In this document: in pieces, positions 1,906 to 21,664 of the stretch
How positions within the stretch are numbered: the stretch's first letter is position 1
Layout of the letters: each line of letters starts with the position of its first letter
Assembly (NCBI GenBank): GCA_037129895.1
Contig: JBAXUB010000001.1
Coordinates: forward strand, 18,947-82,946
Origin: Candidatus Tayloriibacteriota bacterium
Lineage (GTDB): Bacteria; Patescibacteriota; Minisyncoccia; Phycocordibacterales; PALSA-1337
Length of the DNA stretch: 64,000 nt
Reading direction: 5' to 3'
Notes under the pieces: model-generated
Told to the model about the DNA's origin: nothing
Database searches by the model: none
Seen by the model: the letters and a program-made list of their open reading frames with translations, nothing else
Position numbers and translations under genes: made by a program

Positions 1906-3390
1906 TTACTTCCTCAAGAACAGTGGACTCTCTGGCATCTTGTTTTCTCGTATATATGTAAGAATCTTCTCAGCGGTTTCTGGTAATAGTGGCAGCAAAA
2001 ACGTCGCAACTTCACCGAGAGATACTACCAATTCAGTTATGAGCTTTTTGCCGCCTTCTTTGTCAGTCTTCACTAGTGAAAATGGTTTTTCCTTCTGAAT
2101 CTTCTGATCGAGAACCGCTATCTTTTCCCAAACAACATTCATGGCTTTTTGGAGATTGAAGCCTTCGATTGCATCGAAATATTCCTTACTATCTAGTTTT
2201 TCATACGAAAGTGGCGCGGGCATATCAGTTTTTTCCAGATTGTCAGCCGCCATCTTCATGATCCTAGATGTTAGATTACCTATACCATTGGCCAGCCCTG
2301 CATTGTATGTTTCCTTGAATTTCTCCATAGTAAAAGGACTATCTTCGAAGGGGTGCAGCTCTTTTGTTACGAAGTACCTGAAAGCATCTGTTCCATATTC
2401 TCTGACAACATCTATAGGATCGACAGTATTACCCAGAGACTTGGACATTTTGACGCCACCCTCACCAGTTACGAAGCCATTGATGACGATAACTTTGGAT
2501 GGTGTGAGCCCCACAGACATGAGCATCGATTGCCACATTGCTGACTGCTGACGCAAGTTGTCCTTGCCACAATATTGAACGACACCACCAGTTTCATTCC
2601 ACCATTTCTTGAATGAAACCATATCATCCGGCCAGCCGATAGTTGATACATAGTTCACCAATGCATCGAACCACACATACATGACTTGAGTTGCATCATC
2701 TGGAACAGGTATCCCCCACGGCATCTTGCTAGCGAGTCTAGAAATGCTGAAATCTTCTATGCCTCTCTCAACGAAAGCACGGATCTCATTCAGACGTGTA
2801 TTCGGTATAACGAATGAATTCTTACTCTCTGCATTCGTATCAGATGAAGATCCTCGCTCATATAGATCCATGAGGGGCTTTTGATATAGACTGAAACGGA
2901 AGAAATAGTTCTCTTCATTAATTATTTCGATTTCCTGCAATGGATGGAGCGGACACCTTCCATCGACTAGTTCTGACTCGGTTTTCTCAAGTTCACATCC
3001 TACGCAATATTTAATGGAATAATTCTTCTTATAAATGAGGCCGTTCTTGTTGGCTAACTTCCAGAACTCCTGTGCCGCCATAACATGATGTGGATCGGTC
3101 GTACGAACAAACTTTATATCTGTGCTTATGCCGAGTAATGGTAATATCTCACGAAATTTATCAGATATACCGTCCACATATTTCTGTGGATCCAAATGCG
3201 CTTGAGCAGCCTTCTGGTAAATCTTTATTCCATGTTCATCTGTACCTGTATTGAAAAAAACATCATAACCCAACAGTTTCTTATACCTAGCGATAACATC
3301 CGCACGTACGAATTCCAATGCGTGGCCAACATGAGCTTCTGCATTTACGTATGGTAAAGTCGTCGTTATATAAAATGGTTTTTTTGTCAT
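1906..3390 (-). CDS. metG: Methionyl-tRNA synthetase, lacking the C-terminal tRNA-binding domain
   Basis: HIGH-region AHVGHALE and the KMSKSLGN motif are present. At 494 aa it is the short MetRS type. Confidence 0.9.
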   Translation of the reverse strand: MTKKPFYITTTLPYVNAEAHVGHALEFVRADVIARYKKLLGYDVFFNTGTDEHGIKIYQKAAQAHLDPQKYVDGISDKFREILPLLGISTDIKFVRTTDPHHVMAAQEFWKLANKNGLIYKKNYSIKYCVGCELEKTESELVDGRCPLHPLQEIEIINEENYFFRFSLYQKPLMDLYERGSSSDTNAESKNSFVIPNTRLNEIRAFVERGIEDFSISRLASKMPWGIPVPDDATQVMYVWFDALVNYVSTIGWPDDMVSFKKWWNETGGVVQYCGKDNLRQQSAMWQSMLMSVGLTPSKVIVINGFVTGEGGVKMSKSLGNTVDPIDVVREYGTDAFRYFVTKELHPFEDSPFTMEKFKETYNAGLANGIGNLTSRIMKMAADNLEKTDMPAPLSYEKLDSKEYFDAIEGFNLQKAMNVVWEKIAVLDQKIQKEKPFSLVKTDKEGGKKLITELVVSLGEVATFLLPLLPETAEKILTYIRENKMPESPLFLRK

Positions 3391-3400
3391 CTGGGATATT

Positions 3401-4501
3401 CTATACTACCTTGCCCACCTTATCTAGTGCTGCCCTCTCTGCCCTTTCGGCGTTCTTGTATTTCTCTATATCATGGATATATTCCATAAGTGCAGCCGAC
3501 AGAGGCACAGCGATGAGCGCACCCAATACTCCAGCGAGTTTCGCGCCAATAACTAAGGCAAGTATGACGACTATAGGAGAGATGCCCACGATCTTCTTGA
3601 CCACCAATGGATAGAATACTTGGCTTTCCAATTGGTAAATTATGAGATACAAGCAGACAACCAATATTCCTATACCGACTCCACGATCAGTGAAACTAAC
3701 GAGGATCGCTGGCACAGAGGAAATGATCGGCCCAAAGACCGGTATGATCTCGAGTAATGCAGCGAACAATGCCAATATGAGAGCATGTTTGACTCCTACG
3801 GATACGAGCATTATATACACGAGAACTCCGACGACTATTCCCAATATGATCTGCCCTTGTAGCCATAGAGCGATCTTACGCTGTGATCTCTTCCATAGAT
3901 CTATGATGTAATCATGATGTCTAACCGGTGCAACGATACGCAAGAAATCATCTACTCCATCCTCTTTTACAGCTAAATAGAATGACAGAACAATGATCAA
4001 AATGAAACTGAATAGACCGCCGAATATTGTACCAGCTGTTTGGAAAGCATTATCACTAGTACCGACGATCAAGGACTGTAAATAACTAACAAAATCTACA
4101 AGCGATAAAGTGTGTGAGCCGAGACCGTATGAGGATTGTCCTAGAGATACACCTGTGCTACTGATCGGACTCCACAATTCCTGCAAAGATATCGTCTCAG
4201 GTAATGACGAGACGAAGTTCATAGCATCTCGGACAATGATAGGCATGAAGAATATCAATATACCGGCCAAGAGTGCTGACGCAATGATATATACCGTGAT
4301 AACAGTGGCGACTCTATGAATCTTGCGCCTTTTCAATCGGCGGATGAGTGGCTCTATCGTCGATGCTATAACCACGGCCGCAACAACCACGAGGACGATA
4401 TCAGAAAGATAATATATAGCCGCTAGCAATATTAGAATGAGGAAAAATCTAATGATCGTTCCCGTATTTATCACGATGTGACTGTGTTTGGGAGTATCCA
4501 T
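3401..4501 (-). CDS. AI-2E family transporter (PerM-like membrane protein)
   Basis: Multi-TM protein with an LLEIIPVFGPIIS motif typical of the AI-2E/UPF0118 family. Confidence 0.75.
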   Translation of the reverse strand: MDTPKHSHIVINTGTIIRFFLILILLAAIYYLSDIVLVVVAAVVIASTIEPLIRRLKRRKIHRVATVITVYIIASALLAGILIFFMPIIVRDAMNFVSSLPETISLQELWSPISSTGVSLGQSSYGLGSHTLSLVDFVSYLQSLIVGTSDNAFQTAGTIFGGLFSFILIIVLSFYLAVKEDGVDDFLRIVAPVRHHDYIIDLWKRSQRKIALWLQGQIILGIVVGVLVYIMLVSVGVKHALILALFAALLEIIPVFGPIISSVPAILVSFTDRGVGIGILVVCLYLIIYQLESQVFYPLVVKKIVGISPIVVILALVIGAKLAGVLGALIAVPLSAALMEYIHDIEKYKNAERAERAALDKVGKVV

Positions 4502-4528
4502 AATATCTGATTATATCACACCCCTCAT

Positions 4529-5818
4529 CTATATATGAAAATACGACTTGAAGACTTCTGGATCTTTGAATTTACCGATAATGGCCATATTGAGTCCCCT
4601 ATTAACGAAAACTTCATTCGCCAATGCCTTTATATCTTCTGCGGTTACAGAATCCACCTTCTTCATGAATTCCTCCGGCGTATCTATCTTCCTCTTCAAG
4701 ATTTCCTGAAAACCACAATACTCCGCACGTGACTCCGATGTCTCAAGTTCGAGTAATGTAGTGCCGGAAATATAATCCTTGACCTTCTTCAATTCACCGG
4801 CACTGACGAGATCGGTTTTCAATATTTTACATTGATTCAATATCTCCTTTATCGCCTCCTCGACTCTGGCATTATCTACACCCGCCGAGATAGTGAGGTC
4901 TCCATGATCTGTGAACGGATCGTGTGAAGCACGAATGTAATAACATATACCGAGCTCATCTCTCATCTTTGAAAATAATCTCGAACTCATACCCCCGCCG
5001 AGCAGGGTTGTAAGTACGGTCATAGCTGGTATTCTCGGATCATTGATAGAGAACGTTCTCGAAGCAATCACGAGATGTGTTTGATCAGTTTCTTTGAATA
5101 AAGTCTTAATGGCCGGTTCCTCCTGGGACTCGACAACTGGGAGCTTCGGCTTATTAATATCGGTGGCAACAGTCGCGAACATCTTCTCTATTTTGTTGAT
5201 CGTGGCCTTTTCATCGAATGATCCGGAAACCAATACTGTCGTAGCAGAACTCACGTAATGATCCTTCCTATAGCTAACAAAATCAGCACGACCAAAAGAT
5301 TTGATATTATCCTCAGTACCCAAGACACTCCAACCTGCAGGACTATCGCCAAACATAAGCTCCGACAAGACTTCATGAACTCTGCGTTGAGGAAGATCGT
5401 TATACATGCGTACTTCTTCGATGATCACACCTTTCTCTTTGTTTATCTCTGACTCATCGAAAAGCGGATTCATATACATATCTGAGACAATATCCAATAT
5501 TTCATCCAAACGATGTGACGCCGCTTTGGCATAGTAGCCAGTGAATTCTTGAGTGGTAAAAGCGTTGTACTGAGCACCCACTGAATCTAATTCGCGAGAT
5601 ATATCGCTGGCTTTTGGTCTCCTCGGTGTACCCTTGAAAACCATATGCTCCAAGAAATGAGATATGCCATTCTGTTTCTTTGTCTCATATTTCGAGCCAG
5701 CTTCAACCATGACTAATACTGTGACCGAAGGATTCTCAGCCATTGGTACAGTAACGACTCTAAGTCCGCTTTTTAATATTGTTTTATTGAATTTCATATA
5801 TTCTAACAAACTACTCAT
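4529..5818 (-). CDS. M16-family (insulinase/pitrilysin-like) zinc peptidase
   Basis: Inverted zinc motif HFLEHMVF (HxxEH) near the N-terminus; about 430 aa. Confidence 0.8.
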   Translation of the reverse strand: MSSLLEYMKFNKTILKSGLRVVTVPMAENPSVTVLVMVEAGSKYETKKQNGISHFLEHMVFKGTPRRPKASDISRELDSVGAQYNAFTTQEFTGYYAKAASHRLDEILDIVSDMYMNPLFDESEINKEKGVIIEEVRMYNDLPQRRVHEVLSELMFGDSPAGWSVLGTEDNIKSFGRADFVSYRKDHYVSSATTVLVSGSFDEKATINKIEKMFATVATDINKPKLPVVESQEEPAIKTLFKETDQTHLVIASRTFSINDPRIPAMTVLTTLLGGGMSSRLFSKMRDELGICYYIRASHDPFTDHGDLTISAGVDNARVEEAIKEILNQCKILKTDLVSAGELKKVKDYISGTTLLELETSESRAEYCGFQEILKRKIDTPEEFMKKVDSVTAEDIKALANEVFVNRGLNMAIIGKFKDPEVFKSYFHI

Positions 5819-7151
5819 TCCCTATGCCGATTTTTTGCTTCAAATATTTGAGCAGATCAGCTTCGGTAACTCTCTCCTGTTTACCTGAATCACGATCTCG
5901 AACAGTTACACCTGTACCTTTCTCTATAGTCTCAAAGTCAACAGTGACGCAGAGTGGCGTACCGATCTCATCTTGACGACGATAACGTTTTCCTATATTG
6001 CCATTATCATCATAGTCAGTCATCGGTATCTCCTTCTGAATCGTCTTGAATATCTCCTCTGCTTTCTTTATGAGCTCCGGTTTATTCCTTAGCAACGGAA
6101 ATACGGCCACCTTATAAGGTGCTACCCTCGGATGAAGCTTGAGATATGTTCTCTTGTCACCACCTAAGTCATCTTCAGTATATGCATCACAGAGTATAGC
6201 GAGTACTGTCCTATCTAGTCCGAATGATGGCTCTATACAATGTGGTATGAATCTCTCTTTGGTTTCTTCATCATAATAGGAAAGATCAACTTTACTGAAA
6301 TCAGAATGCTGTTTGAGATCGAAATCTCCACGATAGGCCAATCCATATAATTCCTTTTTACCAAAAGGAAAATCAAACTCAAAATCGATAGTTCGTTTCG
6401 AATAGTGTGCACGGTCAGCCTGTGCCACTTCCAACTCGTGGACTTTGGAAGCGTCTAGCCCGACATCGGCCGTGAATGCGAGAACTTCTTTCCTGAAATA
6501 TTCAAATGATGTCTCCCACAGTTTTGGATTGACGAAATACTCTATTTCCATCTGTTCAAACTCGCGAGATCGGAAAAGGAAATCCCTAGGCGCTATCTCA
6601 TTACGGAAAGCCTTTCCTATCTGTGCCATACCAAACGGTAGTCTCGGATGTTGAGTGTCCAATACATTCTTGAAATTCACGAACATTCCCTGTGCAGTCT
6701 CTGGTCGTAGATATGATACCGACGAAGCGTCTTGGATAGCTCCAACATGAGTCTCGAACATCATATTGAACTTCCTCTCTTCACCCAAGTCTCCACCACA
6801 ATCTGGACACTTCTTTTTGTTAGTAGCATCACCTTCTATCTGATCGGCACGAAATCTATGCTTGCATTTCTTGCACTCGACGAGTGGATCAGCGAAGCCT
6901 GATGCGTGACCACTAGCTTGCCAGACTCTCTGATTCATGAGGATGGCTGCATCAACTCGGAACATGTTTCTCTTCCCCACAACGAAGCGGCTGTACCAAG
7001 CATCTTTGATGTTAGATTTCAACGCTTCTCCGAAAGGACCATAGTCCCATGTACCGGCTAAACCGCCATATATCTCTGAACCTTGGAATATAAAACCACG
7101 TCGCTTACAAAGTGCGACTACCGCATCCATTTTGTCTTCTTGTTTATTCAT
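5811..7151 (-). CDS. glyQS: Glycyl-tRNA synthetase, class II alpha2 type
   Basis: N-terminus ...RRGFIFQGSEIYGGLAGTWDYGPFG... is characteristic of dimeric GlyRS. Confidence 0.9.
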   Translation of the reverse strand: MNKQEDKMDAVVALCKRRGFIFQGSEIYGGLAGTWDYGPFGEALKSNIKDAWYSRFVVGKRNMFRVDAAILMNQRVWQASGHASGFADPLVECKKCKHRFRADQIEGDATNKKKCPDCGGDLGEERKFNMMFETHVGAIQDASSVSYLRPETAQGMFVNFKNVLDTQHPRLPFGMAQIGKAFRNEIAPRDFLFRSREFEQMEIEYFVNPKLWETSFEYFRKEVLAFTADVGLDASKVHELEVAQADRAHYSKRTIDFEFDFPFGKKELYGLAYRGDFDLKQHSDFSKVDLSYYDEETKERFIPHCIEPSFGLDRTVLAILCDAYTEDDLGGDKRTYLKLHPRVAPYKVAVFPLLRNKPELIKKAEEIFKTIQKEIPMTDYDDNGNIGKRYRRQDEIGTPLCVTVDFETIEKGTGVTVRDRDSGKQERVTEADLLKYLKQKIGIGNE

Positions 7152-7196
7152 ATCGCTATTCTACACTTAAAAAGGTAACAGTGACAAGTATAAATA

Positions 7197-9131
7197 CTAC
7201 TTCACCACCACACCATCTCCATCATTATATATTGGGTCTGTACTGAATCTCGTTGAGAGCTCCTCTTGTGTACTAGTCAATTGTGTTCCTGTAAACGCAT
7301 CTGCCGCAGTTAGAGATGTCTGATTGACCAGAGTTACTGGCTGACCGATCTGGTTCACCGCTGGAGTAACTGACAATTGGAATGATACTTCTCTCCTTCT
7401 CAATGAATTCAATGTATAAGTACCAACATTTCCAACTACCCAAGTGACGCGACCACTATTCGGGTCATAAGTAATATTTTCATTACTTGGATTGAAGACG
7501 TTTAACCATTTGACTGAAGGCGGTAAAGTGGTTGTAACTTGTGCATTTCCAACAGCGTTTGAAGTATTGTCTACATTCCATATTATTGTGAAAGTTGAAG
7601 GCTGTTCTACTTTCGGAGGTATTGGTCCAGTATTCACGAATGGTCCAACACTACGCACAACTCTACCAGACAGGCTCACGCTAGAAGAGACTCTGATATT
7701 ACGTGCAACCACTGAATGCAAATTACTAGAAACACTAGTCTCCTGTGTACGATCTCCAGAAACACTCGTCGATAGAGTCACCAATGGATTGGTTACAGCC
7801 CGAACCGAGGAACCGAAATCTCTTGGAGTGAGACGGAAAGATACAGTACCTTTAGACCCCGCTCCTACACTAGCGAATTCTGGATTTGTTTGTTGATTCC
7901 AGACGATCTCATCTGAACTGGAGTTAAAATATCCTCTATCAGGCGACACCTTGGTCTTGTCATATGCAGAACCAGATAGTTTCAATGTAATGATTAGATT
8001 TGATACAGATACTGGCAGATTGTTGACCCAGCTCACCTCTACCTGATCTTCTTGTCCGAACTGTCCGACATAATCACTATTTGAACTGTTACCATTTATT
8101 GACATAACCAACGATATGAAAGGCTTTTGCACGGTCATATCCTGCTCCGCTGCAACATATTGAGTCCCTATGAGCGTAGCATCTGATACACTCGTTGCTC
8201 CTGCCGTGAAGCGAAAGACTTTCGTATCACTATTTTCTCCCGTCAGTTTGCCGTGAATCGTTACTACCCTCTCCGCACCAGCTGGTATATCACCGATTTT
8301 CCATATCGTATTGTTTGTCTGTGGTTTCAAATCAGCAGATATGAAGGTGAAGCCAAATGGATACTGAGATTTCAATAATATATTTTTCAATGTTTCTTGC
8401 GAGTTTGATTTTACTTTTACGGTCATATCGAATTCTTGACCAGATGACACTTCTTTATATGAATCAACCGTTAAGCTTATCGGTGATGAGTTGATGAGGA
8501 CATCATAAGTCTTGCTCTTGGTAAAAAGTGAGTTTGATCCTTTGACTTTATACGTAACATTGACGGCGATCGTCTTCTGCATATTTTCTTCACCGAATAT
8601 TATGGCTCTAACTATTTTCTCCGACGACTTGCCAGCCGCCAAGTCACCAACCAATTCATGATAGGTCTTCATCTCCTTCGTCGAATCATTGGGGTCTGTT
8701 GTGCCTGCTGGGAAATCAACCGCCAAGTCAGCCGTCTGTAAGTCAACATTATTTCGATTCGTCACAATGACGCCGAAAGATACTGGCGTACCGCCAGGTA
8801 TAGAAACTGGACCATTGATACTGATATCTATATTGTCTGCCGAAATGAGATTGGCACCATTTAGAAACAAATATGCTCCGAGACCTATAGCGATGACACA
8901 GAATATTACTGAACCGATCAATATCTTCTTCAAATATGACATAGAGTGATCTTCGAAATTTTGGTTAAGTGTCGTCTCCACAGGCTTCTCTACCGGCTCT
9001 TCCCATGAAGTCTTCATCTCTGACGGCTTGTCATTGAAGCGCAGCTTGCGCCTAGTTCGCACGTCAGGAGCACCTCTCGAATACAGAGATTTCTTCAATT
9101 CTTCAATGTAGCTTTTATCTTCTGACTCCAC
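7197..9131 (-). CDS. Large membrane-anchored surface protein: N-in, one TM, Ser/Thr/Asn/Val-rich beta-like ectodomain. Function unknown.
   Basis: Single TM ILIGSVIFCVIAIGLGAYLFL after a charged N-terminus. The remainder is a low-complexity beta-rich extracellular region. Confidence 0.5.
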   Translation of the reverse strand: MESEDKSYIEELKKSLYSRGAPDVRTRRKLRFNDKPSEMKTSWEEPVEKPVETTLNQNFEDHSMSYLKKILIGSVIFCVIAIGLGAYLFLNGANLISADNIDISINGPVSIPGGTPVSFGVIVTNRNNVDLQTADLAVDFPAGTTDPNDSTKEMKTYHELVGDLAAGKSSEKIVRAIIFGEENMQKTIAVNVTYKVKGSNSLFTKSKTYDVLINSSPISLTVDSYKEVSSGQEFDMTVKVKSNSQETLKNILLKSQYPFGFTFISADLKPQTNNTIWKIGDIPAGAERVVTIHGKLTGENSDTKVFRFTAGATSVSDATLIGTQYVAAEQDMTVQKPFISLVMSINGNSSNSDYVGQFGQEDQVEVSWVNNLPVSVSNLIITLKLSGSAYDKTKVSPDRGYFNSSSDEIVWNQQTNPEFASVGAGSKGTVSFRLTPRDFGSSVRAVTNPLVTLSTSVSGDRTQETSVSSNLHSVVARNIRVSSSVSLSGRVVRSVGPFVNTGPIPPKVEQPSTFTIIWNVDNTSNAVGNAQVTTTLPPSVKWLNVFNPSNENITYDPNSGRVTWVVGNVGTYTLNSLRRREVSFQLSVTPAVNQIGQPVTLVNQTSLTAADAFTGTQLTSTQEELSTRFSTDPIYNDGDGVVVK

Positions 9132-9179
9132 GTGTATATTTTACAACTAATCTGGATAAATCACCAATTGTTCGACCTA

Positions 9180-9806
9180 TTACAGATGCGACTCCTGCAA
9201 CGCTTTATTGATATGTTGATTGATTATTTTCCTTTTCAAGCTTACCCGATCCAACAAATCATGAGTGATCCCGCCAAACCTGATCTCTTCACCAATATCT
9301 TGATCCTTACCAATATATCCCAATAAATGTAGGACCCTATATACAACGATCGATTCCAATGAAGCTAGACGATCAATATCTTTTCTATCAATTATTAATA
9401 TATTTAATAAAGACGATTCCAGAGAATCGAATAACTCTGGGTGTGGATCCTCGCCTTGGAGAAATCTCTTGAGTAATAGTGCAACCCTAGCTACTAGATC
9501 ACGATCACCACCTCCCTCACTACCCACTTTCTCCATTCCCTGCGCACTCGTCAATCTCCAATATTCTTTTCCCCTAACGAATGAATACACCCCCCAAGAA
9601 TAGTCCTGTATGAAATACCTCAGTTTTGATTTCTCCAATCGTATTCCTTGCGCAGTCGCAAAGATCAAACCAAAATCGCGAGTAAATATTGATAATATTT
9701 TTCCCGCATCGCCGTATGGACGTGAACCGACAACAAAACCAGCTGTAGTATGTATTGCATGCATGATGATTCTGACTTGCGACCAGACGGCTAAACCGAT
9801 AGCCAA
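9180..9806 (-). CDS. recO: DNA repair protein RecO (start may be the internal Met at 9764)
   Basis: N-terminal OB-fold pattern GFVVGSRPYGDAGKILSIFTRDFGLI resembles the RecO segment eaiVLrrrpyGEsd.il.lltre.G. Confidence 0.55.
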   Translation of the reverse strand: MAIGLAVWSQVRIIMHAIHTTAGFVVGSRPYGDAGKILSIFTRDFGLIFATAQGIRLEKSKLRYFIQDYSWGVYSFVRGKEYWRLTSAQGMEKVGSEGGGDRDLVARVALLLKRFLQGEDPHPELFDSLESSLLNILIIDRKDIDRLASLESIVVYRVLHLLGYIGKDQDIGEEIRFGGITHDLLDRVSLKRKIINQHINKALQESHL

Positions 9807-9820
9807 CTCGAACTGGCACT

Positions 9821-12800
9821 TTATCTAATATCCAACTTCACATTCAATTCACCGACAGCCTGACTCTCCCCAGTCACACTCGAGAACGATATACCTTTGA
9901 CTGAAGTAGCTGCAGAAATCGCCTTCTCATTCTTTTCAATAAATGTCTTGCCGGCTACATCCGTATCAACTATGAGAGATACCTTATCATTCACGGTAAA
10001 GCCCCTATCCTTGCGAAGATCCTGAATAACGCGTATGAGTTCACGAACTGTTCCCTCTTCTTTCAGTGCTGGAGTTATAGCGATATCTAACTCGACTTCT
10101 TGAGTGAGACCCGCCAAAAACATAACTTCCTTTACATTGACTTCATCCATGATGAGTTCACAGAACTCTGGACTGAGTCCCGCCGACTTCTCTGTATTAT
10201 TGACCGTCAATTTTGCCAAAGGTTGTCTAACGTTGATCTTGGCTTTCATACGGGCTTCGAGACCTTTCGAAGCAATGTCTCTAACTATTTGCATGTTCTC
10301 GATCAATTTCGCATCGGATTTTCCAACTTCTGGCCAAGACGTGAGATGTACGCTATTAGTAGAGCCGAACAATTCCTGATGTAGATACTCAGCATAGAGT
10401 GGAGTAAACGGCGCCATCAATCTCGCTAGAGTTGAGAGCACGTATCTAGTAGTAGATAGAGCCTGTATCTTATCTACACCATCATTCTTGAACCGATCTC
10501 TAGATCTACGCAGATACCATTGAGAGAGTTCAGCTATAAAATCACGGATCGCCCTGGTCGGTTCAAAGAATTTGTAATTGTCTAGATTTTTCGTTGTTGT
10601 TTCTATCAACTGACTTAGTTTGGCGATGATCCATCGATCCAAGATATTGGAAGACAACGATCTGTCCACTGCCCTCTTTTCTAATGTAGCATCACCCAAC
10701 TCCTCGACACTTCTATTCTCATATAGTTTATAGAATGCTGTAACATTGGATATGAGATTGAATACTTTCTTCACAACCTCATCAACAGTTTTCTCATCAA
10801 AATTCTTTGAATCTCCTGGCTGATTGACGGAATACATCCAAAAACGTAGTGCGTCTGCTCCATATTTATCCATCATATCCCAAGGACTAACGACGTTGCC
10901 GATGGACTTACTCATCTTCTTGCCTTTGGCATCCAGGATATGTCCCAAACAGATTACATTCTTGTACGCCTTACCTTTACCCATGATCGCTCCGATAGCA
11001 TGCAATGTATAGAACCATCCACGTGTCTGATCGATCGCCTCCGAGATGAAATCCGCCGGATAAGCAATGTCCCGACCGATCTCTTCATTCCCGCCCAACT
11101 CATGCTCCTGCGAAAACGGCATCGATCCGGAATCGAACCAGACGTCCAAAACTTCCCTAGCACGACTCATCGTCCCGCCACACTGGCAATCCAACTTTAC
11201 ATCATCTATGAATGGTTTATGTAGATCAAGCTCATAATCCGCATTGTGAGGCAAGATAGAAAAATCCACTGGTCGCACTTCTGCGTTTGCGATGAAATCT
11301 TCCTGCTTTCGGTAGATTCTAGCACTATCGATATCATGACCTGCTGCAGCTGCAAACAATGTATAGGCCGGAGTCTCATGAGTGACGATCAATATCGTTT
11401 TGCCCTCATATTTACTTTCCATATCATATAGGAATTCACCCATACGTCTCTTTATATCCATATAGTCTTCCCCTCCTTCTGGTTTCCATAACCATCGGTC
11501 ATTCTCGCCGCATGCACGAGCCAATTCATCCACACCCTTCCCATCGAAAATTCCCGCACCATATTCTCTGATCCGATCATCTACAATAACTCTCGACGAA
11601 TCGAGGCCGACTACATCACGTACTATCTCAGCAGTTTCTCTAGTTCGTAGGAGTGGAGATGTAAAGATAAGATCGATTTTTGATGATACCAACTTCGCAG
11701 CAGAATCACTCACGTCTTTCTCGCCTTTCTCGGTCAAGTTGATGATGGAAGTAGCCGCAGTATCTAGAATATTCCTAACATTGTTCTCTGCTTCGCCATG
11801 TCTCATGACCAAGTATTTGTTCTTCGATCTCTTGGCCAATTCAGAAACAACACCAACCACTCTAGTAGATTTACACTTCTCACATGTCCATACAGGCAAC
11901 GGCGTCCCCCAATAACGCTCTCTCGATATTGCCCAATCCTTGATCTCACGTAGCCACTCACCAAAACGACCCTCCTTGATATGTTCGGGTTCCCAATGTA
12001 TCCCCTCATTTTCCTTAACTAATGTGTCGCGCAAACTAGACATCCGCAAATACCATGAATCGCGAGCGAAATATATGAGAGGTGTATGACAACGCCAACA
12101 GAATGGATATGTGTGTTCATACTTTTCCTTGGCAAACAAAAGTTTTCGTCCAGCCAAATCCTTTATGATAGTGACATCCGTGCCAGGATCTTTGACGAAA
12201 AGACCAGCCAATGATCCGGCCTCTTTCTTGAAAGTACCATCATCATTCACCAAGTGGAATTTCGGAAGCCCTACCTTCGTCCCCAATTCAAAATCATCCT
12301 GACCATACATAACTGCTATATGAACGATTCCAGTTCCGTCAGACGTTGTAACGAACGGAGCGGCGTAGACTCTATATGCATTCGCTAGCTTCTCCTTTTC
12401 GGTACCTTGCACATTGTCCTTGAGAAAGGGATACAAAGGGTTATAGGCGAGACCTACCAATGTTCCACCTTTCACAGTTTCCAACACGCTCGCATTTTCA
12501 AAATGTGACTTCAATGCTTCGAACCTCTCTTTCGCCAAAATCACCACTTCCCCGCTTGCGACTTTTACTTTTACATATTCGATATCGGCATTAATCGCTA
12601 AACCAACATTCCCTGGCAACGTCCACGGAGTAGTCGTCCATGCCAACAAGTATGTATTAGCTTCACCAACGACTTCAAATTTTACATAAACTGATAGATC
12701 TTTGACCGTCTCATATCCTTGCGCCAATTCGTGTGAAGAAAGACCCGTCCCACAACGTGGGCACCACGGAACTACTTTGTAGTCTTTATAAAGTAGTTTC

Positions 12801-13345
12801 TTGTTTTCAGCAGTTTTGATTATACTCCAAACCGACTCTATATATTGCGACTTGTAAGTTATATATGGATTCTCTAGGTCCACCCAATAACCCATACGAT
12901 CAGTGAAGTCCTCCCATTCATGTACGTACTTCCAGACACTCGCTTTGCACTTCTCATTGAATAGGCCTATGCCGTATGACTCTATTTCTTTTTTGGACTT
13001 CAGCCCGAGTTCCTTTTCTACTTGTAACTCAACTGGCAGACCATGTGTATCCCATCCACCTTTTCGACGTACATGATAACCCTGCATCGTCTTGTATCTA
13101 GGAATTGCATCCTTGAAAGCACGCGCCTCTAGATGATGGATACCTGGTCTACCGTTAGCTGTCGGAGGTCCTTCATAAAATACGAACTCGCCCTTTGGAG
13201 ACTCCTTGCCCAATGACTTTTCGAAAACGCTATTCTCTTTCCAATACTTCAAAATCGCCTCTTCACGCAATGCATGGGGACTTTTCACTGAATTTGTTGA
13301 ATACTGGCTATTCTCTCGATCAGTTTTGTTGTTTGGAAGAGGCAT
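9821..13345 (-). CDS. ileS: Isoleucyl-tRNA synthetase with an inserted histidine-phosphatase (PGAM-like) domain
   Basis: PGIHHL (HIGH) and KMSKSIGN are present, with an editing domain. Residues about 508-700 (YLVMRHGEAENN...LIVTHETP...) form a nested RHG phosphatase domain. Confidence 0.9.
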   Translation of the reverse strand: MPLPNNKTDRENSQYSTNSVKSPHALREEAILKYWKENSVFEKSLGKESPKGEFVFYEGPPTANGRPGIHHLEARAFKDAIPRYKTMQGYHVRRKGGWDTHGLPVELQVEKELGLKSKKEIESYGIGLFNEKCKASVWKYVHEWEDFTDRMGYWVDLENPYITYKSQYIESVWSIIKTAENKKLLYKDYKVVPWCPRCGTGLSSHELAQGYETVKDLSVYVKFEVVGEANTYLLAWTTTPWTLPGNVGLAINADIEYVKVKVASGEVVILAKERFEALKSHFENASVLETVKGGTLVGLAYNPLYPFLKDNVQGTEKEKLANAYRVYAAPFVTTSDGTGIVHIAVMYGQDDFELGTKVGLPKFHLVNDDGTFKKEAGSLAGLFVKDPGTDVTIIKDLAGRKLLFAKEKYEHTYPFCWRCHTPLIYFARDSWYLRMSSLRDTLVKENEGIHWEPEHIKEGRFGEWLREIKDWAISRERYWGTPLPVWTCEKCKSTRVVGVVSELAKRSKNKYLVMRHGEAENNVRNILDTAATSIINLTEKGEKDVSDSAAKLVSSKIDLIFTSPLLRTRETAEIVRDVVGLDSSRVIVDDRIREYGAGIFDGKGVDELARACGENDRWLWKPEGGEDYMDIKRRMGEFLYDMESKYEGKTILIVTHETPAYTLFAAAAGHDIDSARIYRKQEDFIANAEVRPVDFSILPHNADYELDLHKPFIDDVKLDCQCGGTMSRAREVLDVWFDSGSMPFSQEHELGGNEEIGRDIAYPADFISEAIDQTRGWFYTLHAIGAIMGKGKAYKNVICLGHILDAKGKKMSKSIGNVVSPWDMMDKYGADALRFWMYSVNQPGDSKNFDEKTVDEVVKKVFNLISNVTAFYKLYENRSVEELGDATLEKRAVDRSLSSNILDRWIIAKLSQLIETTTKNLDNYKFFEPTRAIRDFIAELSQWYLRRSRDRFKNDGVDKIQALSTTRYVLSTLARLMAPFTPLYAEYLHQELFGSTNSVHLTSWPEVGKSDAKLIENMQIVRDIASKGLEARMKAKINVRQPLAKLTVNNTEKSAGLSPEFCELIMDEVNVKEVMFLAGLTQEVELDIAITPALKEEGTVRELIRVIQDLRKDRGFTVNDKVSLIVDTDVAGKTFIEKNEKAISAATSVKGISFSSVTGESQAVGELNVKLDIR

Positions 13346-13480
13346 GATATTGAATCACCGAATAATGGTATTTATGGCATTCATTCTAGCATTTTTTTGA
13401 TTAATTGGAATAAAAATGCTCAGAACAGCTAAAAGCGATTCTGAGCGAGTGAAGTCGAGAGACCAGTACAACATGTGTCG

Positions 13481-13921
13481 TTAAGCCGGCACTCGTAACC
13501 GTGACAAGATGCACAACACTTCATCAACGAGGAGTCTGTGTCCGGACTTGACCATCGGGATTTCGTAACGCAGACCATTTAATCCCTGGTCATGCCAGAT
13601 GCGTATCTCCATGAACTCTGCAGCTGATTCAGCCTTCTTGAGATCACAGAGGACGCTAGGATCGTATAACTCGAAGCTGGCGATCCAAGCTGCTTGCATA
13701 TGCTTAACATCAGCTGGATCGATCTTGAGACCAACCCAACACCCGGTCTGTGGTAAAGTCTTCTTCACCGGGCAACAACAACGAAATCCTGGCCGTGTTT
13801 GCTCAATGTGCGCAATTTCGATCGGAAACTCGGCCAACTCTGTATACAACAGAGGTACGGCCCTAGGTATCAATCTATTCATATGTAATTCTCCTTCTGC
13901 CGAAACTCTACCATTAAACAA
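13481..13921 (-). CDS. Hypothetical Cys-containing protein (FRCCCPV) of higher GC than its neighbours
   Basis: 146-aa ORF co-oriented with the flanking argS/ileS. No family recognised. A competing plus-strand ORF at 13599..13946 is less likely. Confidence 0.35.
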   Translation of the reverse strand: MFNGRVSAEGELHMNRLIPRAVPLLYTELAEFPIEIAHIEQTRPGFRCCCPVKKTLPQTGCWVGLKIDPADVKHMQAAWIASFELYDPSVLCDLKKAESAAEFMEIRIWHDQGLNGLRYEIPMVKSGHRLLVDEVLCILSRLRVPA

Positions 13922-13932
13922 ATATAAATCAA

Positions 13933-15666
13933 CTACATCTTCCTAGGAACTTTGATCCCCAGTATCCACAAACCGCGAGTCATGGTTTTCAAGAATGCTT
14001 TGGTAAGTTCAACCCTGTAATCAGACATGGGATCTTTTTTATCGAGAATAGTCTCCGCAGCATAGAAACTATTGAAACTTCCTGCCAATTGAACCAAATA
14101 ATTGGAAACGATCTGAGGAGCGTATTCAATATTGGCGCGCTCAGCAATATCTGGAAAACGAACCAACAATTTTTCTAGTACACCAACATGATCTGGTTTT
14201 TGTATTGCTAATGACGCAGATTTCGATCCTCCTGCCTTCTCAATGATCGAATTGGCTCGTACAGCTGAATATTGTAGATACGGACCAGAGTCCCCTTCAA
14301 ATGATATAGACGCTGCAGAATCAAATATTACATTACCACCGATCGCCTGACGCAATATCGTATATTTGATCGCTCCAACTGCTATATCTGTAGCGATCTC
14401 GTCACTTTCATCGGCAGTGAAATTTCGTTCAGCGATCCTCTCTATCACCATTTTTTTCATCTCACCGATCAATGAATCCGCAGTTATAACATTACCTGTT
14501 CTAGATGACATTTTGCCTTGAGAAAAACGCAGCATTCCATGACCGATATGGAATGTCTTTCCACCATTTTTTTCATCAATCAGAGACAAGACCTTTCTGA
14601 TGACTTTGAAATATTCATTTTGCTCATTGGCTGTCACGACGATCGATCTTTCTACATTTGGATATTTGCGAAATTTTGTAACATTCAAGCCAACATCTTT
14701 GGTCTCATAAGTTGGCAAACCGCGAGAATTGATAAATACTCTAGTATGTAAACCATACTCTTCCCCTTTGAATACAACCGCACCGTCGCTTTCCTCGAAA
14801 ACTTCGGTGGCTCCCCGTCCTTTCATATGTGCCCGAACTACTTCTAGCCCAATAGCCGCTACTTCACTCTCAAATATCTGTGTATCAAACTTTGTACCCA
14901 GAATTCCATATAGCAATTGGAAGTGATCCAAACTCCATCCCCTACCCTTGTCATACAGATCATTCACTGACTGATCAGACTTGTCATATATGACTTGATT
15001 GAGCTCATCAATCTCGTTTTTCACCGTCGGATCAGCATCATAGGCTTTTGTCCCTTCAACATACATCTTCCCCAAGAATTGCGTCCTCTCCTCGATAGGT
15101 GCAGCTTCGGATGGAATCTCTTCCAGGTGTTGTTGCATCGCCCAGATCGATTTTGCAATATGTAGACCGATATCAGACGGATAACAGATCCTAATTATTT
15201 TCTTGCCAGAAAACTCTATAAGTCTAGAAACTGATTCCCCTATCGTATTGGACATGATGTGCCCGATATGGAAAGCTTTGAAGGTATTTGGATCGGTATA
15301 TTCTATGAGTACCTCACCCGCATTTTCCTTATGATCCGCACCTACACCACCGATCACGTGATCAGTCTTTGCAATATTCAAAATCTCATCGAAGAAAATC
15401 TGATCCTTCAATTTGAAATTGATAAATCCGACTCCAGCAACCTGCACATCCACGATGAAATCAGGTCTGACATTTTTCATATCTGCTACGATTTTTTCTG
15501 CCAGAACTTTCGGTGACGTACCCAATTGTTTCGAGTAGACAAGCGCCACATTGGTCGTAAGATCACCGTGATCCATGTTTTCTGGATAATCCAACTTGAT
15601 CTGCGGCTGAGCTACACCTAGGGACCTCAGTGATTTTTCGACTAGATTTATCAGTTCTTGCTTCAT
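13933..15666 (-). CDS. argS: Arginyl-tRNA synthetase
   Basis: HIGH motif (FHIGHIMSN), length 577 aa, overall ArgRS pattern. Confidence 0.9.
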   Translation of the reverse strand: MKQELINLVEKSLRSLGVAQPQIKLDYPENMDHGDLTTNVALVYSKQLGTSPKVLAEKIVADMKNVRPDFIVDVQVAGVGFINFKLKDQIFFDEILNIAKTDHVIGGVGADHKENAGEVLIEYTDPNTFKAFHIGHIMSNTIGESVSRLIEFSGKKIIRICYPSDIGLHIAKSIWAMQQHLEEIPSEAAPIEERTQFLGKMYVEGTKAYDADPTVKNEIDELNQVIYDKSDQSVNDLYDKGRGWSLDHFQLLYGILGTKFDTQIFESEVAAIGLEVVRAHMKGRGATEVFEESDGAVVFKGEEYGLHTRVFINSRGLPTYETKDVGLNVTKFRKYPNVERSIVVTANEQNEYFKVIRKVLSLIDEKNGGKTFHIGHGMLRFSQGKMSSRTGNVITADSLIGEMKKMVIERIAERNFTADESDEIATDIAVGAIKYTILRQAIGGNVIFDSAASISFEGDSGPYLQYSAVRANSIIEKAGGSKSASLAIQKPDHVGVLEKLLVRFPDIAERANIEYAPQIVSNYLVQLAGSFNSFYAAETILDKKDPMSDYRVELTKAFLKTMTRGLWILGIKVPRKM

Positions 15667-17212: not shown

Positions 17213-17275
17213 CTATTTGCAGACCTGAGGAGAAACCGGCTTTTTCAAAACAGCATCGATCTTTCGAGCAATCTT
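17213..17275 (-). repeat. Authentic glyA 3' end; direct-repeat partner of 16035..16097
   Basis: See the paired repeat feature. Confidence 0.8.
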
Positions 17276-18430
17276 TACAAAATCTTTCTCTTTCCTACCA
17301 CGAGTAGTCTCTGCGGCGGTGCCAAGTCGTATGCCTGACGGGTCAGCTGGTGGACGTGTGTCGAAAGGAATGGCGTTCTTGTTGACGATGATACCTGCTT
17401 GTTCGAGTCTAGTACTAGCCTCTTTACCAGTAACTCCGCCAGCACCATTTTCATTCACATGACCGTCATGCCAAGTATCTACCAAAACTAGATGACTATC
17501 CGTGCCACCAGAGATGACCCTCCAACCAAACTTTCTCAGGTGTTCCGCCAAAACTGCAGCATTCTTCACAACTTGTGCAGCGTATTTCTTGAATTTTGGA
17601 CTAGCTGCTTCTTTGAGTGCCACTGCAACAGCAGCAATCTGATTTATATGTGGTCCACCCTGTAGTCCAGGAAAAACTGCCTTGTCTATCTTCTTGTCCA
17701 ATTCCCTATCATCGCGTCTCACGAATATGAGAGCTGCGCGTGGGCCACGGAGAGTTTTGTGTGTAGTCGTCGTAACAATATCAGCATATGGAAAAGGTGC
17801 AGGATATGCACCACCAGCTACCAATCCAGCGATATGAGACATATCAACCATGAGTAAAGCCTGAGCCGCGTCCGCAACTTCCCTCATCTTGACCCAATCA
17901 ATAATACGAGGATAGGCCGTATAGCCAGCAACTATGATCGCCGGCTTTTCTGCCACAGCCTTTTCTCGAAGCTGATCGTAATTCAATACTTCAGTTGTCT
18001 TATCTACACCATATGGCACCTGAGTCCAAAACTTTCCTGTAGCAGAAACTTTGTGCCCATGCGTAAGGTGTCCTCCTTGATCGAGTGACATCCCCATGAT
18101 CTTACCGCCTTGTGGGACTAACGCGGTATAGACTGCCAGATTCGCTGGTGAACCCGAGAGAGCTTGCACGTTTACATGCCACTTATCATGATCGAGCCCG
18201 AATAATTCTAACGCCCTTTCCATACACAGACTCTCTATCTTATCTACTATCTCATTACCCCCATAATATCTCTTTCCCGGATAACCCTCCGCATATTTAT
18301 TGGTAAGTTCTGAGCCAAGTGCCTCTAACACATCATTCGAAACATAATTCTCCGAAGCTATCAGGTTGACGACTTTTTTCTGTCTATTCTTTTCTGACAA
18401 TATTAATTTTTTTATTTGTTTATCTTTCAT
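17213..18430 (-). CDS. glyA: Serine hydroxymethyltransferase (start at internal Met MKDKQIKK)
   Basis: LIASENYVS...YAEGYPGKRYYGG signature; PLP-lysine region present. Confidence 0.9.
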   Translation of the reverse strand: MKDKQIKKLILSEKNRQKKVVNLIASENYVSNDVLEALGSELTNKYAEGYPGKRYYGGNEIVDKIESLCMERALELFGLDHDKWHVNVQALSGSPANLAVYTALVPQGGKIMGMSLDQGGHLTHGHKVSATGKFWTQVPYGVDKTTEVLNYDQLREKAVAEKPAIIVAGYTAYPRIIDWVKMREVADAAQALLMVDMSHIAGLVAGGAYPAPFPYADIVTTTTHKTLRGPRAALIFVRRDDRELDKKIDKAVFPGLQGGPHINQIAAVAVALKEAASPKFKKYAAQVVKNAAVLAEHLRKFGWRVISGGTDSHLVLVDTWHDGHVNENGAGGVTGKEASTRLEQAGIIVNKNAIPFDTRPPADPSGIRLGTAAETTRGRKEKDFVKIARKIDAVLKKPVSPQVCK

Positions 18431-18751
18431 ATGTATATCGTAACATAACATACCGCCTACAAAAAATGGTCCGCTACACCCAGTGTGTAACGGACCACCA
18501 ACCACCCATACAAAGGGAAGAAATCAACGACACACGACGCGACTTTAGTGACAAAATAGAATTTGTCCAATCCTTAGCCACTCATACGGTGATATGTCGT
18601 TTTTGTTTGACCATTGAAGGTCTGCGAGCCAAATGGCCCAGTACGGGACGCGAACTCATAGTTCGAATCTCTGATGAAAAGATTACTCCTCGTCCGCAAT
18701 TAATGCAAGCTAGTTATACACACGTTATCCACAGGCTATTCCGTGACTCGT

Positions 18752-19402
18752 CTACTTGAGCAGTTTGCGCATCTCCTCCAAGAAATCACTTTTCACTTCC
18801 TCGAAAGGCCTATTGGCGTCTATCGTAACATGCGGCACTTTCTTCAGAAATTTCAAATACCCCTTCCTCACCTTTTCGTGGAATATGATCTTTCTATTAT
18901 CGAAATGATCATACTTGGTAGTATTTCTGTTCGACTCATTGCGAGATCTCGCACGACGCAGACCAACCAGAGGATCCACATCCACAAACACATAGAGATC
19001 TGGGACATGTACCAACTTGTCACGAAGTAACCAGAAGATTTCCTCGAGATCGCCATTTGTTTGAGCTGCGACTTGATATGCAAAAGAAGAACCATCAAAT
19101 CTATCGGCCACCACCGACATTCCCGATTTCAATGACGGCTCGATCACATTCACCACATTGTCGAAGCGGGCGGCAAACATAAGACACAGTGTCGTCTCAG
19201 CCGGCGCAGTCTTCGCTAGAGGATTCTTGAGTGCAGCATTCCTGATGATCTCCGCATAAGGCGATCCTCCAGGTTCACGAGTTATGAGAGCAACACCCGG
19301 CATCTCCTTCGCGAGAGCGGCCATGAGTGAAGATTTACCGGAACCTTCTCCACCTTCAACAGCGATGAACATCGGTCTCTTTTTATTTCTCAATTTTTTC
19401 AT
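18752..19402 (-). CDS. tmk: Thymidylate (dTMP) kinase family dNMP kinase
   Basis: P-loop FIAVEGGEGSGKSS and TREPGGS motifs. Confidence 0.85.
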   Translation of the reverse strand: MKKLRNKKRPMFIAVEGGEGSGKSSLMAALAKEMPGVALITREPGGSPYAEIIRNAALKNPLAKTAPAETTLCLMFAARFDNVVNVIEPSLKSGMSVVADRFDGSSFAYQVAAQTNGDLEEIFWLLRDKLVHVPDLYVFVDVDPLVGLRRARSRNESNRNTTKYDHFDNRKIIFHEKVRKGYLKFLKKVPHVTIDANRPFEEVKSDFLEEMRKLLK

Positions 19403-19447
19403 GATTTTACTTTCTACATCACTTATACCAGAGAGAGATGACAGCGT

Positions 19448-19930: not shown

Positions 19931-20006
19931 TTTGATAAATCCGCATTAAGAACCATTAACTAATAATTGTAAACTGTTTACTATTTCTTTAATTATATAT
20001 AATAGA

Positions 20007-20849: not shown

Positions 20850-20861
20850 CCAACACACCCA

Positions 20862-21491: not shown

Positions 21492-21520
21492 AATTACTGA
21501 ACGTATATTAATAATCGGCT

Positions 21521-21632: not shown

Positions 21633-21664
21633 AACCGAAATAATCACAACAAATAATCACCACC

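Follow-up and report, generated by a model that had tools for sequence, protein, structure and literature searches.

CP1, the editing domain, is universal and ancient, and hydrolyses aminoacyl esters. Its place within the Rossmann-fold body of IleRS, ValRS, and LeuRS is also a precedent for the insertion of an entire catalytic domain (PMC13114784). Another IleRS with an acquired accessory enzyme domain is captured by the profile NF040702 (ileS_w_GNAT, 'isoleucine--tRNA ligase, N-acetyltransferase domain-containing'). The solved enzymes from Priestia megaterium (IleRS2; 8C8U/V/W) and Thermus thermophilus (1ILE) share an order of CP1, the CP3 Cys pairs, KMSKS, and the anticodon-binding and C-terminal domains, with a loop of ~40 residues between the Cys pairs. 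In Thermus IleRS, a zinc motif is present in the counterpart of CP3 (PMC7191050). Among histidine phosphatases, PhoE/YhfR of Geobacillus stearothermophilus (1EBB, 1H2E) and its group are free-standing soluble enzymes; related short-cap phosphatases are PspA (4IJ5), CobC (6NRU), GpgP (4PZ9), HFP (9MMH), and a mycobacterial hydrolase (6S2Q). The same phosphatase type is fused to a nucleic-acid enzyme in the Rv2228c-type bifunctional RNase H/acid phosphatase (NF005567).

Here, we describe an IleRS in which these two kinds of enzyme appear to be combined. It is encoded in the window, the 64-kb stretch of DNA from a Candidatus Tayloriibacteriota bacterium that was analysed as a whole (Table 1). Its domains follow the order of the solved enzymes, but in the loop between the Cys pairs it has 191 extra residues that by their sequence form a second enzyme, a histidine phosphatase (HP). 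In contrast to CP1, this phosphatase is lineage-specific, lies in another loop, and would carry out unrelated chemistry. It also differs in fold and position from the acetyltransferase of NF040702, against which the host, having no GNAT domain, scores 297 bits (cut-off 1999).

Table 1. Features of the ileS locus, with positions counted along the window
Feature	Position	Strand	Basis or conservation
recO, downstream neighbour	9180..9806	minus	recO downstream in 52/80 loci; likewise L081, L091, L092
ileS, type-2 isoleucyl-tRNA synthetase, host protein	9821..13345	minus	single ORF, 1174 aa
KMSKS loop, intact, aa 810-814	10904..10918	minus	K810, M811, K813 invariant (120 homologues)
Second Cys pair, CP3 zinc knuckle, C720-x-C722	11180..11188	minus	at least 90% conserved (120 homologues); aligns with C-P-V-C region of 8c8w
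His_Phos_1 (PhoE-like) domain, aa 508-698, 191 aa	11252..11824	minus	PF00300; boundaries 507/699; pLDDT; dN/dS
H656, second catalytic histidine (LIVTHE), predicted	11378..11380	minus	invariant (120 homologues)
E594, predicted acid/base catalyst	11564..11566	minus	invariant (120 homologues)
R567, second phosphate-binding arginine (SPLLRTRET), predicted	11645..11647	minus	invariant (120 homologues)
RHG motif R515/H516/G517	11795..11803	minus	R515, H516 invariant; G517 at least 90% (120 homologues); kept at all insertion sites and hosts
First Cys pair, CP3 zinc knuckle, C488-x-x-C491	11873..11884	minus	at least 90% conserved (120 homologues); aligns with CEGC of 8c8w
CP1 editing domain, intact, about aa 210-414	12104..12718	minus	isolated editing-domain structure 1wk8 matches, E 1.2e-28
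GIHH, aa 68-71	13133..13144	minus	swapped variant of class I HIGH signature; read from sequence
argS-ileS gap, 587 bp	13346..13932	minus	slot of stand-alone HP gene elsewhere; here small conserved ORF
argS, upstream neighbour	13933..15666	minus	Pfam; argS upstream in 50/80 insertion loci and all sampled argS-HP-ileS loci

The host protein passes the equivalog threshold of the ileS profile TIGR00392 (891.3 bits; cut-off 621.4), has further Pfam matches to tRNA-synt_1, Anticodon_1, and DUF5915, and aligns in the structure database with 8c8w (E 1e-238) and 1ile (E 2.5e-229); its model superposes on 8c8v with a TM-score of 0.81, normalised to the target. All the class I motifs sought are present, namely a HIGH-type signature (GIHH), KMSKS, and CP1, whose motifs WTTTPWT and GTG.VH do not vary among 120 homologues. 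The swapped GxHH form of the signature is shared with chain 8c8w, where the region reads GVHH (HVGH in 8c8u); the 8c8w record is described as a 'mupirocin hyper-resistant HIGH motif mutant'. By profile and motifs the ORF is a genuine type-2 IleRS, with a synthetase predicted to be intact despite the insert. It is neither MupA nor MupB (NF000257 and NF000258; 794 and 797 bits; cut-off 1900), and no second, insert-free ileS was found within the window.

The insertion lies between the CxxC and CxC pairs of the zinc-binding loop of the peripheral subdomain CP3 (TCEKCKS, aa 487-493; DCQCGG, aa 719-724). In the alignment with 8c8w, chain residue 478 corresponds to query residue 507 and residue 479 to query residue 699, a clean insertion of about 191 residues, and base composition is uniform across both junctions. 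The zinc ligands are retained around the insert. Positions 11246-11824 of the minus strand translate to residues 508-700, and the excised segment, when searched against PF00300 (His_Phos_1), matches with an E-value of 3.6e-30 and 105.5 bits (cut-off 21.7; 100.6 bits in context). The phosphatase motifs are YLVMRHGEAENN (aa 511-522), LIFTSPLLRTRETAEIV (aa 559-575), and LIVTHETPAY (aa 652-661). An earlier note, made from the DNA sequence, had proposed that profile search and had read here a single 1174-residue ileS frame with a complete RHG-type domain at about residues 508-700, set between the two Cys pairs, after which the synthetase resumes; the ORF, every motif quoted, the profile, and the 8c8w alignment all bear this out, with DVWFDSGSMPF (aa 734-744) and KMSKS following C-terminal of the insert.

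The same note called the domain 'PGAM-like', which holds for the histidine-phosphatase superfamily and makes too much of the link to mutases. The residue test for branch 1 of the superfamily finds the RHG His, the second Arg, the second His, and the acidic donor all present, and PhoE belongs to that branch with the same catalytic residues and cap length, its residues 6-164 aligning end to end with insert residues 6-163. PhoE and its short-cap relatives are the best sequence matches (E 4e-15) and fold matches (TM 0.72-0.79, target-normalised), although identity to the PhoE group is only 20-27% and the NCBIfam search reached none of the equivalog cut-offs for mutase, CobC (TIGR03162, 72.8 against 162.9 bits), PspA (NF045917, 65.3 against 350), or SixA (TIGR00249, 35.2 against 74.5). 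The best NCBIfam E-value (1.9e-23) belongs to NF005567, yet that family is an end-to-end fusion with RNase H rather than a synthetase insertion, and the insert scores 83 bits against its cut-off of 326. The second-best match, the archaeal dPGM model NF038349, raises the question of whether the cell's glycolytic cofactor-dependent phosphoglycerate mutase has been fused to IleRS; no other PGM is encoded in the window, an absence that says little as the window is a small part of the genome. We regard such a fusion as very improbable. The insert reaches 82 of the 225 bits that NF038349 requires and falls still further short of the other dPGM equivalogs (NF002339, 39.5 against 316; TIGR01258, 29.7 against 81.7), the cap is short as in phosphatases, mutases stand lower in the fold ranking, and an ordinary iPGM gene lies next to enolase in a related Patescibacteria genome. 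Judged by sequence and modelled fold, the insert most resembles PhoE-type small-molecule phosphatases, not mutases.

AlphaFold2 models the insert with a pLDDT of 88-97 in context (pTM 0.80) and of 95.4 alone (pTM 0.91), so that the domain is confidently predicted to fold independently, a point the earlier note had wanted checked. The top 50 Foldseek matches of the domain model in the PDB are all members of the histidine-phosphatase superfamily, with 6S2Q, PhoE, PspA, HFP, CobC, and GpgP the best and true mutases ranked below the phosphatases. The insert has diverged further than its host (mean identity across homologues 46%; IleRS core, 74-77%), and purifying selection acts on it (dN/dS 0.092; whole gene, 0.073). 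Residues R515, H516, N522, G541, S563, R567, E594, E626, R634, and H656 are invariant in the 120 homologues. A catalytically silent module, that is, a structural, tRNA-binding, or ligand-sensing pseudo-enzyme that tunes IleRS, would fit the frequent tRNA-binding or regulatory roles of aaRS accessory domains and an insert placed within the catalytic body, close to the second Rossmann-fold half (PMC7191050). This is an improbable account, as pseudo-enzymes normally lose the very residues (nucleophile His, acid/base Glu, phosphate ligands) that are invariant here in hundreds of sequences and all copies, and the stand-alone form conserves the same ones. The insert is apparently a complete and functional phosphatase.

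The architecture is not peculiar to this contig. It is common to 120 of the 120 nearest homologues, from independent assemblies and at 57-85% identity, and the phosphatase lies inside IleRS at all 80 named genome loci (the best 80 of 216 species genomes), every one from Patescibacteria. At 78 of these loci the gene is one uninterrupted reading frame, a closed genome among them; in the other two, the N-terminal part of IleRS is a separate ORF. The complete genome CP011215 carries the insert. On this survey, which follows the orthologue comparison proposed earlier, the insert is judged to be clade-wide in Paceibacteria-type Patescibacteria. An assembly chimera or sequencing frameshift joining two genes, the artefact that the earlier note held could undo its reading, is excluded because the same architecture recurs in independent assemblies, and with the single frame at 78 of 80 loci and the uniform base composition its likelihood is negligible. 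The fusion had also been put forward as a novelty. Our literature searches for a phosphatase-in-synthetase architecture found no paper describing one, and aaRSs are among the best-studied enzymes, with phosphatase activity, to our knowledge, absent from their textbook repertoire; it is, however, no one-off, being clade-wide and recurring in ValRS. Such proteins already stand unremarked in public databases, where NCBI labels them 'class I tRNA ligase family protein'.

In related lineages with an insert-free IleRS, the phosphatase is a separate gene of ~189 aa, in the order argS-HP-ileS in 6 of 8 sampled cases (P0161, P0194, P0299, P0320, P0342, and P0350, with 0-1 gene between HP and ileS); the stand-alone relatives in the other two do not adjoin ileS. 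At L081, the locus of P0161, the zinc knuckle is uninterrupted and 1 nt separates the HP stop from the ileS ATG; the stand-alone HP is apparently translationally coupled to ileS. The distribution is complementary, with no separate HP ORF near any of the 80 insertion loci (best 80 of 216 species genomes). Both forms conserve the same residues at the level of at least 90%, and the inserted domain and the operon gene are judged to be the same enzyme. In the window, the argS-ileS gap holds no HP remnant (hmmsearch --max, E 0.21). A structured RNA in this gap was considered and rejected: Rfam gave no match, and substitutions of 8/6/20 by codon position favour a small protein gene. Patescibacteria genomes are small and long mixed operons are common in them, which makes adjacency weaker evidence than elsewhere. 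A CYTH gene (L089) and a P-loop domain (P0234) are single cases with weak Pfam matches below the gathering score, and serve as leads only.

The HP domain is also found at two other IleRS sites and in ValRS, with up to 4 copies, and all inserted copies keep the RHNREH catalytic set or show one N-to-A change. Where one synthetase has 2-4 copies, these have diverged to 28-36% identity and each retains the catalytic set. Setting aside two longer proteins (P0232, P0239), the best 150 matches out of 1.84 billion representatives include no recognised host other than IleRS and ValRS. No parallel valS-HP operon was seen, in that neither of two insert-free valS loci has an adjacent HP gene. In a neighbour-joining tree of HP domains with midpoint rooting, all operon-family sequences fall in one clade, and the inserted copies do not make up a monophyletic group. 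The IleRS tree groups the insert-free L091 with the insert-bearing P0134 at 100% bootstrap and gives 0% for monophyly of the insert-free forms, and indicates that HP has probably been relocated repeatedly.

Several sites and copies in essential genes resemble the behaviour of inteins, and one homologue with both a GNAT tail and the phosphatase insert (P0179) has an IS200-like Y1 transposase domain inside CP1. A selfish element or mobile in-frame insertion, whether resembling an intein or derived from a transposon, that the zinc knuckle tolerates, as the earlier note had also suggested, is nevertheless highly improbable. No Hint, intein, or endonuclease Pfam family is present in the host protein at E <0.01, and the 'PHN' at the C-terminal boundary of the insert aligns to host CP3 residues of 8c8w. 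Moreover, the copies are ancient and diverged, with purifying selection on an invariant set of phosphatase residues, while the orthologues are an ordinary operon gene, elsewhere the stand-alone partner of ileS, and the surroundings of the 80 loci hold no additional copies.

More weight attaches to a housekeeping metabolite phosphatase with no tie to aminoacylation, carried from the translation operon into a tolerant loop by illegitimate recombination and kept since the enzyme is needed. The closest characterised relatives are broad-specificity metabolite phosphatases, CP3 is structurally plastic between IleRS lineages (PMC7191050), some stand-alone relatives lie away from ileS, and the insertion sites are all in variable or low-confidence loops, with pLDDT values in the host model, for example, under 50 at aa 750-756 and of 58-61 around aa 881-900. 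We consider this explanation unlikely, though a serious contender. Domains of this type have independently entered ValRS and no fewer than three sites of IleRS; the diverged copies have each kept their catalytic set; the recognised hosts among the best 150 matches (P0232 and P0239 aside) are confined to the two synthetases; and the repeated relocation always stays with ileS, a specificity that neutral hitch-hiking does not predict.

From the invariant catalytic residues, the operon form, the complementary distribution, the recurrence, and the repeated relocation, we infer a selected domain that is a dedicated partner of IleRS and not a selfish insert. Our preferred reading, which we hold to be probable, is that the insert is a catalytically competent PhoE-type phosphatase, dedicated to IleRS in Patescibacteria and moved in frame into the CP3 loop here. 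The enzyme that many lineages encode as a separate gene directly upstream of ileS would thus sit inside the zinc loop, giving one polypeptide with three active sites, for aminoacylation, CP1 editing, and phosphatase activity. By analogy with superfamily chemistry, H516 would attack a phosphomonoester to form a phospho-histidine, with R515, R567, N522, and H656 holding the phosphate and E594 serving as acid/base. The comparative pattern suggests that selection maintains genetic and physical linkage and a 1:1 dosage with the synthetase; precise geometry would not be needed, since the domain would serve both as a free-standing protein and in at least four different loops.

As to the substrate, the earlier note had thought of a mis-charged product, which the chemistry makes unlikely, since neither aminoacyl esters nor adenylates are phosphomonoesters. 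Our best, speculative guess is some small, diffusible phospho-ester connected with the aminoacylation cycle. A nucleotide, for example AMP or a 2'/3'-phosphorylated adenosine nucleotide, is a candidate with a modest chance of being correct, a phosphorylated tRNA 3' end is a still more doubtful one, and the rest of the probability lies with a metabolite unrelated to that cycle. The nearest characterised relatives are promiscuous enzymes of ordinary metabolites, which makes a role outside translation possible. We tentatively suggest, at somewhat less than even confidence, that the phosphatase is a third catalytic centre of the class Ia synthetase system that removes phosphate from nucleotide or tRNA 3'-end species blocking or mis-regulating the charging of Ile (and Val). 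It would then be a quality-control or product-clearing step not known from model organisms, encoded in trans (argS-HP-ileS) or in cis (CP3 and other loops).

The insert degrades automatic annotation, and a PF00300 match counted as a phosphoglycerate mutase could mislead metabolic reconstructions. It also offers domain-insertion engineering a useful natural case of one enzyme relocated inside another, apparently with neither destroyed. In hundreds of species from a major uncultured radiation, IleRS and, in parallel, ValRS are linked to a phosphatase whose active site is intact. Some lineages keep this link by gene adjacency and others by in-frame insertion, and it seems to have been re-established repeatedly. 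This pattern is a strong comparative-genomic signal pointing to functional partnership. Its substrate, once identified, could reveal a new step in the maintenance of tRNA charging or, in these minimal symbiotic cells, a connection of translation with the metabolism of nucleotides or phosphate.

The isoleucyl-tRNA synthetase (IleRS) encoded in the window passes the NCBIfam ileS equivalog (891 bits, cut-off 621), and its Pfam matches are tRNA-synt_1, Anticodon_1 and DUF5915 in addition to the histidine-phosphatase family His_Phos_1 (PF00300). The synthetase part is complete, with KMSKS at aa 810-814 and with both the anticodon-binding domain and the C-terminal domains; the editing motifs of CP1, WTTTPWT and GTG.VH, do not vary across 120 homologues. 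In 120 of the 150 IleRS cores examined, the HIGH signature of class I enzymes takes the swapped form GxHH, and others have canonical HxGH; swapped GxHH also occurs in Priestia megaterium IleRS2 chain 8c8w, described as a HIGH-motif mutant with hyper-resistance to mupirocin.

The earlier note had seen a phosphatase domain inside this IleRS, at 11246-11824, which translates to aa 508-700. All the motifs it quoted are found in place in the 1174-aa reading frame, and the PF00300 match together with structure alignment confirms the observation. In the alignment to 8c8w, residues 21-507 correspond to chain residues 7-478 and residues 699-1074 to 479-847; since 478 and 479 are neighbours, the 191 extra residues are a clean insertion, and base composition is even across both junctions. 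The insertion site is the CP3 subdomain, between a CxxC pair (C488, C491) and a CxC pair (C720, C722). CP3 connects CP2 with the Rossmann fold's second half, bears a zinc-binding motif in Thermus IleRS and differs in topology between all solved IleRS lineages (PMC7191050). In the insert-bearing family (120 homologues), conservation of each of the four cysteines is 90% or higher; the zinc site is therefore probably retained, with the phosphatase suspended from it by two linkers. In an AlphaFold2 model of the whole protein (120-sequence alignment; pLDDT 88, pTM 0.80), the insert is among the most confident regions (10-residue blocks at pLDDT 88-97), and the IleRS body matches 8c8v with a TM-score of 0.81, normalised to target.

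Excised from its host, the insert matches PF00300 with an E-value of 3.6e-30 (105.5 bits, gathering score 21.7), and modelled alone it reaches pLDDT 95.4 and pTM 0.91 (AlphaFold2). R515, H516, N522, R567, E594 and H656 form the full branch 1 catalytic set and are invariant in 120 homologues, as are G541, S563, E626 and R634; mean identity is 46% for the insert versus 74-77% for the IleRS core. Measured against locus L092, the closest relative, the insert has a dN/dS of 0.092; the gene as a whole has 0.073, its anticodon-binding domain 0.117 and its C-terminal domains 0.201. These data put the insert under strong purifying selection as an enzyme, and a pseudo-enzyme fits them poorly. Its nearest solved relatives are PhoE (E 4e-15) and PspA by sequence, and the mycobacterial hydrolase 6S2Q, PhoE, PspA, the riboflavin-pathway HFP 9MMH, CobC and GpgP by fold. 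True mutases rank below phosphatases in the fold search, and a glycolytic mutase likewise fits poorly. The insert missed the curated NCBIfam equivalog cut-offs for dPGM, CobC, PspA, SixA and RNase H/acid phosphatase. Sequence and model together identify it as a short-cap, PhoE-like predicted small-molecule phosphatase.

Among orthologues, PF00300 and the IleRS domains occur together in each of the 120 best-matching homologues, which come from independent assemblies and are 57-85% identical. With each GTDB species represented by a single genome, a scan found relatives of the insert encoded in 216 genomes; the top 80 are without exception Patescibacteria MAGs (labels Taylor-, Nomura-, Campbell-, Vogel- or Yonathbacteria, or Paceibacterota), the closed genome CP011215 being one of them. 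The domain lies inside IleRS in 80/80 of these loci, in one reading frame in 78. About 100 of the best 150 matches in an exhaustive HMMER search of 1.84 billion cluster representatives are IleRS proteins or fragments. An artefact fits poorly, an assembly error or one-off being ruled out by the 120 homologues and 80 loci.

In the window, argS is followed by the insert-bearing ileS and then recO, with no separate phosphatase gene. Of the 80 loci with the insertion, 50 have argS upstream and 52 have recO downstream; a separate phosphatase ORF occurs in none. P0161 (189 aa), the closest of the stand-alone relatives, is found in locus L081 between argS and an insert-free ileS (931 aa); the stop codon of P0161 is one nucleotide from the ileS start, and the CxxC...CxC knuckle of that IleRS is uninterrupted. 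The family of P0161 comprises at least 317 stand-alone Patescibacteria proteins. Four further members (48-57% identity) all stand in the order argS, phosphatase, 0-1 gene, ileS; P0194 also follows argS, on a short contig that cuts the next gene, and the stand-alone relatives P0183 and P0200 are located elsewhere, not beside ileS. The residues conserved at 90% or more, non-catalytic ones included, coincide between the inserted and operon forms, which are one enzyme in two genetic formats, complementary in their distribution. Between the stand-alone gene and ileS, the argS-phosphatase-ileS operon of L089 has a CYTH-domain gene (triphosphate tunnel metalloenzyme family; 5070-5660), and L090 has an unannotated 330-aa gene in this slot.

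Two other IleRS sites also harbour the phosphatase, one following the WF(D/E)SGSMPY motif and one preceding the anticodon-binding domain (P0201, P0235, P0224, P0151, P0219), and P0256 has it in tandem. P0250 is a genuine ValRS with the domain (948 bits, cut-off 704), and the ValRS P0139 has four copies, one in CP2. In Magasanik- and Falkowbacteria-type Patescibacteria, the ValRS insert follows DTWFSSG...GWP (P0250, P0139, P0205; e.g. P0404, P0407, P0507; locus L083); it occurs in about 50 of the 120 nearest ValRSs, so labelled and interleaved with insert-free ones, some bearing the JGI label 'valyl-tRNA synthetase/broad specificity phosphatase PhoE'. An adjacent phosphatase gene was absent at both insert-free valS loci examined. 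Copies within one protein are only 28-36% identical and therefore old. Every copy keeps R-H-N-R-E-H, save one N-to-A change, and the selfish element that the earlier note had allowed for fits poorly. A bootstrapped NJ tree, built from IleRS cores stripped of the phosphatase, places insert-free L091 with insert-bearing P0134 (100%) and nests two-site (W+A) forms in knuckle-site forms (99%); it recovers insert-free IleRS as monophyletic in 0%. These groupings indicate that the phosphatase shifted repeatedly between a gene before ileS and a domain inside it, and between loops, or else that ileS alleles were exchanged among lineages. Two IleRSs carry further domains. P0234 has, besides the knuckle phosphatase, a nucleotide-kinase-like P-loop domain (aa ~737-870, after WFESGSMPYAS) with weak matches to AAA_18, AAA_33 and Zeta_toxin below gathering score; in P0179 the phosphatase insert is joined by a GNAT acetyltransferase domain at the C-terminus and, within the CP1 editing region, by an IS200-like Y1 transposase domain (PF01797).

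Features of the window
Feature	Position	Strand	Remark
S6 ORF, 292 aa	104-982	minus	ribosomal protein S6 match confined to residues 138-233
metG	1906-3390	minus	synthetase gene in the same 14 kb
class II synthetase, 446 aa	5811-7151	minus	weak zinc-ribbon match at aa 92-121
recO	9180-9806	minus	downstream of ileS
ileS, type-2 IleRS	9821-13345	minus	single ORF, 1174 aa
GIHH (HIGH signature)	13133-13144	minus	aa 68-71 of IleRS, swapped GxHH form
argS-ileS gap	13346-13932		587 bp
Cys-rich ORF, 133-146 aa	13481-13921	minus	within argS-ileS gap
argS	13933-15666	minus	upstream of ileS
thymidylate/dNTP cluster	17213-22165		compact
tRNA-Leu(GAG)	37180-37264	minus	ARAGORN

The argS-ileS gap has a GC of 0.48-0.49, above its surroundings, and is 91.5% nucleotide-identical to that of L092, versus 81% for the whole 9.3-kb syntenic block. 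Its Cys-rich ORF, in the slot of other lineages' stand-alone phosphatase gene, has no Pfam match and was recovered only in L092 among 92 loci; with differences of 8/6/20 by codon position, it is probably a small real protein. Four co-directional aminoacyl-tRNA synthetase genes lie within 14 kb (1906-15666, minus), among them recO, a DUF11 surface protein, an M16 peptidase, an AI-2E transporter and tatD. The S6 ORF has either a ~137-aa N-terminal extension or a mis-called start. The tRNA-Leu(GAG), which Rfam does not report at gathering threshold (7 tRNAs in the window by ARAGORN, 6 by Rfam), overlaps the end of the mechanical ORF 36628-37227. The thymidylate cluster comprises SHMT, thymidylate kinase, dCMP deaminase, thymidylate synthase, a dCTP deaminase-like gene and DHFR.

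Comparison of these proteins establishes that selection holds an intact, predicted phosphatase active site linked to IleRS. Catalysis would proceed via phospho-H516, with E594 as acid/base. The selected trait would be co-localisation and stoichiometry, not fixed geometry, since the enzyme works both on its own and from at least four loops. Speculatively, the substrate may be, in descending order, a small nucleotide-type phospho-ester tied to the aminoacylation cycle, a phosphorylated tRNA 3' end or an unrelated metabolite; the P0234 P-loop domain and the L089 CYTH gene are weak leads only. A housekeeping phosphatase carried along by neutral hitch-hiking is the serious alternative, if a rather improbable one.

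Public databases already contain the exact window protein, under the name 'class I tRNA ligase family protein [Candidatus Taylorbacteria]', and the other sequences and Pfam matches are public too. The architecture is undescribed in the full-text literature searched, including 2026 surveys of IleRS domain evolution and of domain insertions; what is new is its recognition and the comparative pattern. The window IleRS is a class Ia synthetase into which a further catalytic domain has been inserted, an arrangement that is broadly conserved and directly testable and would surprise specialists.
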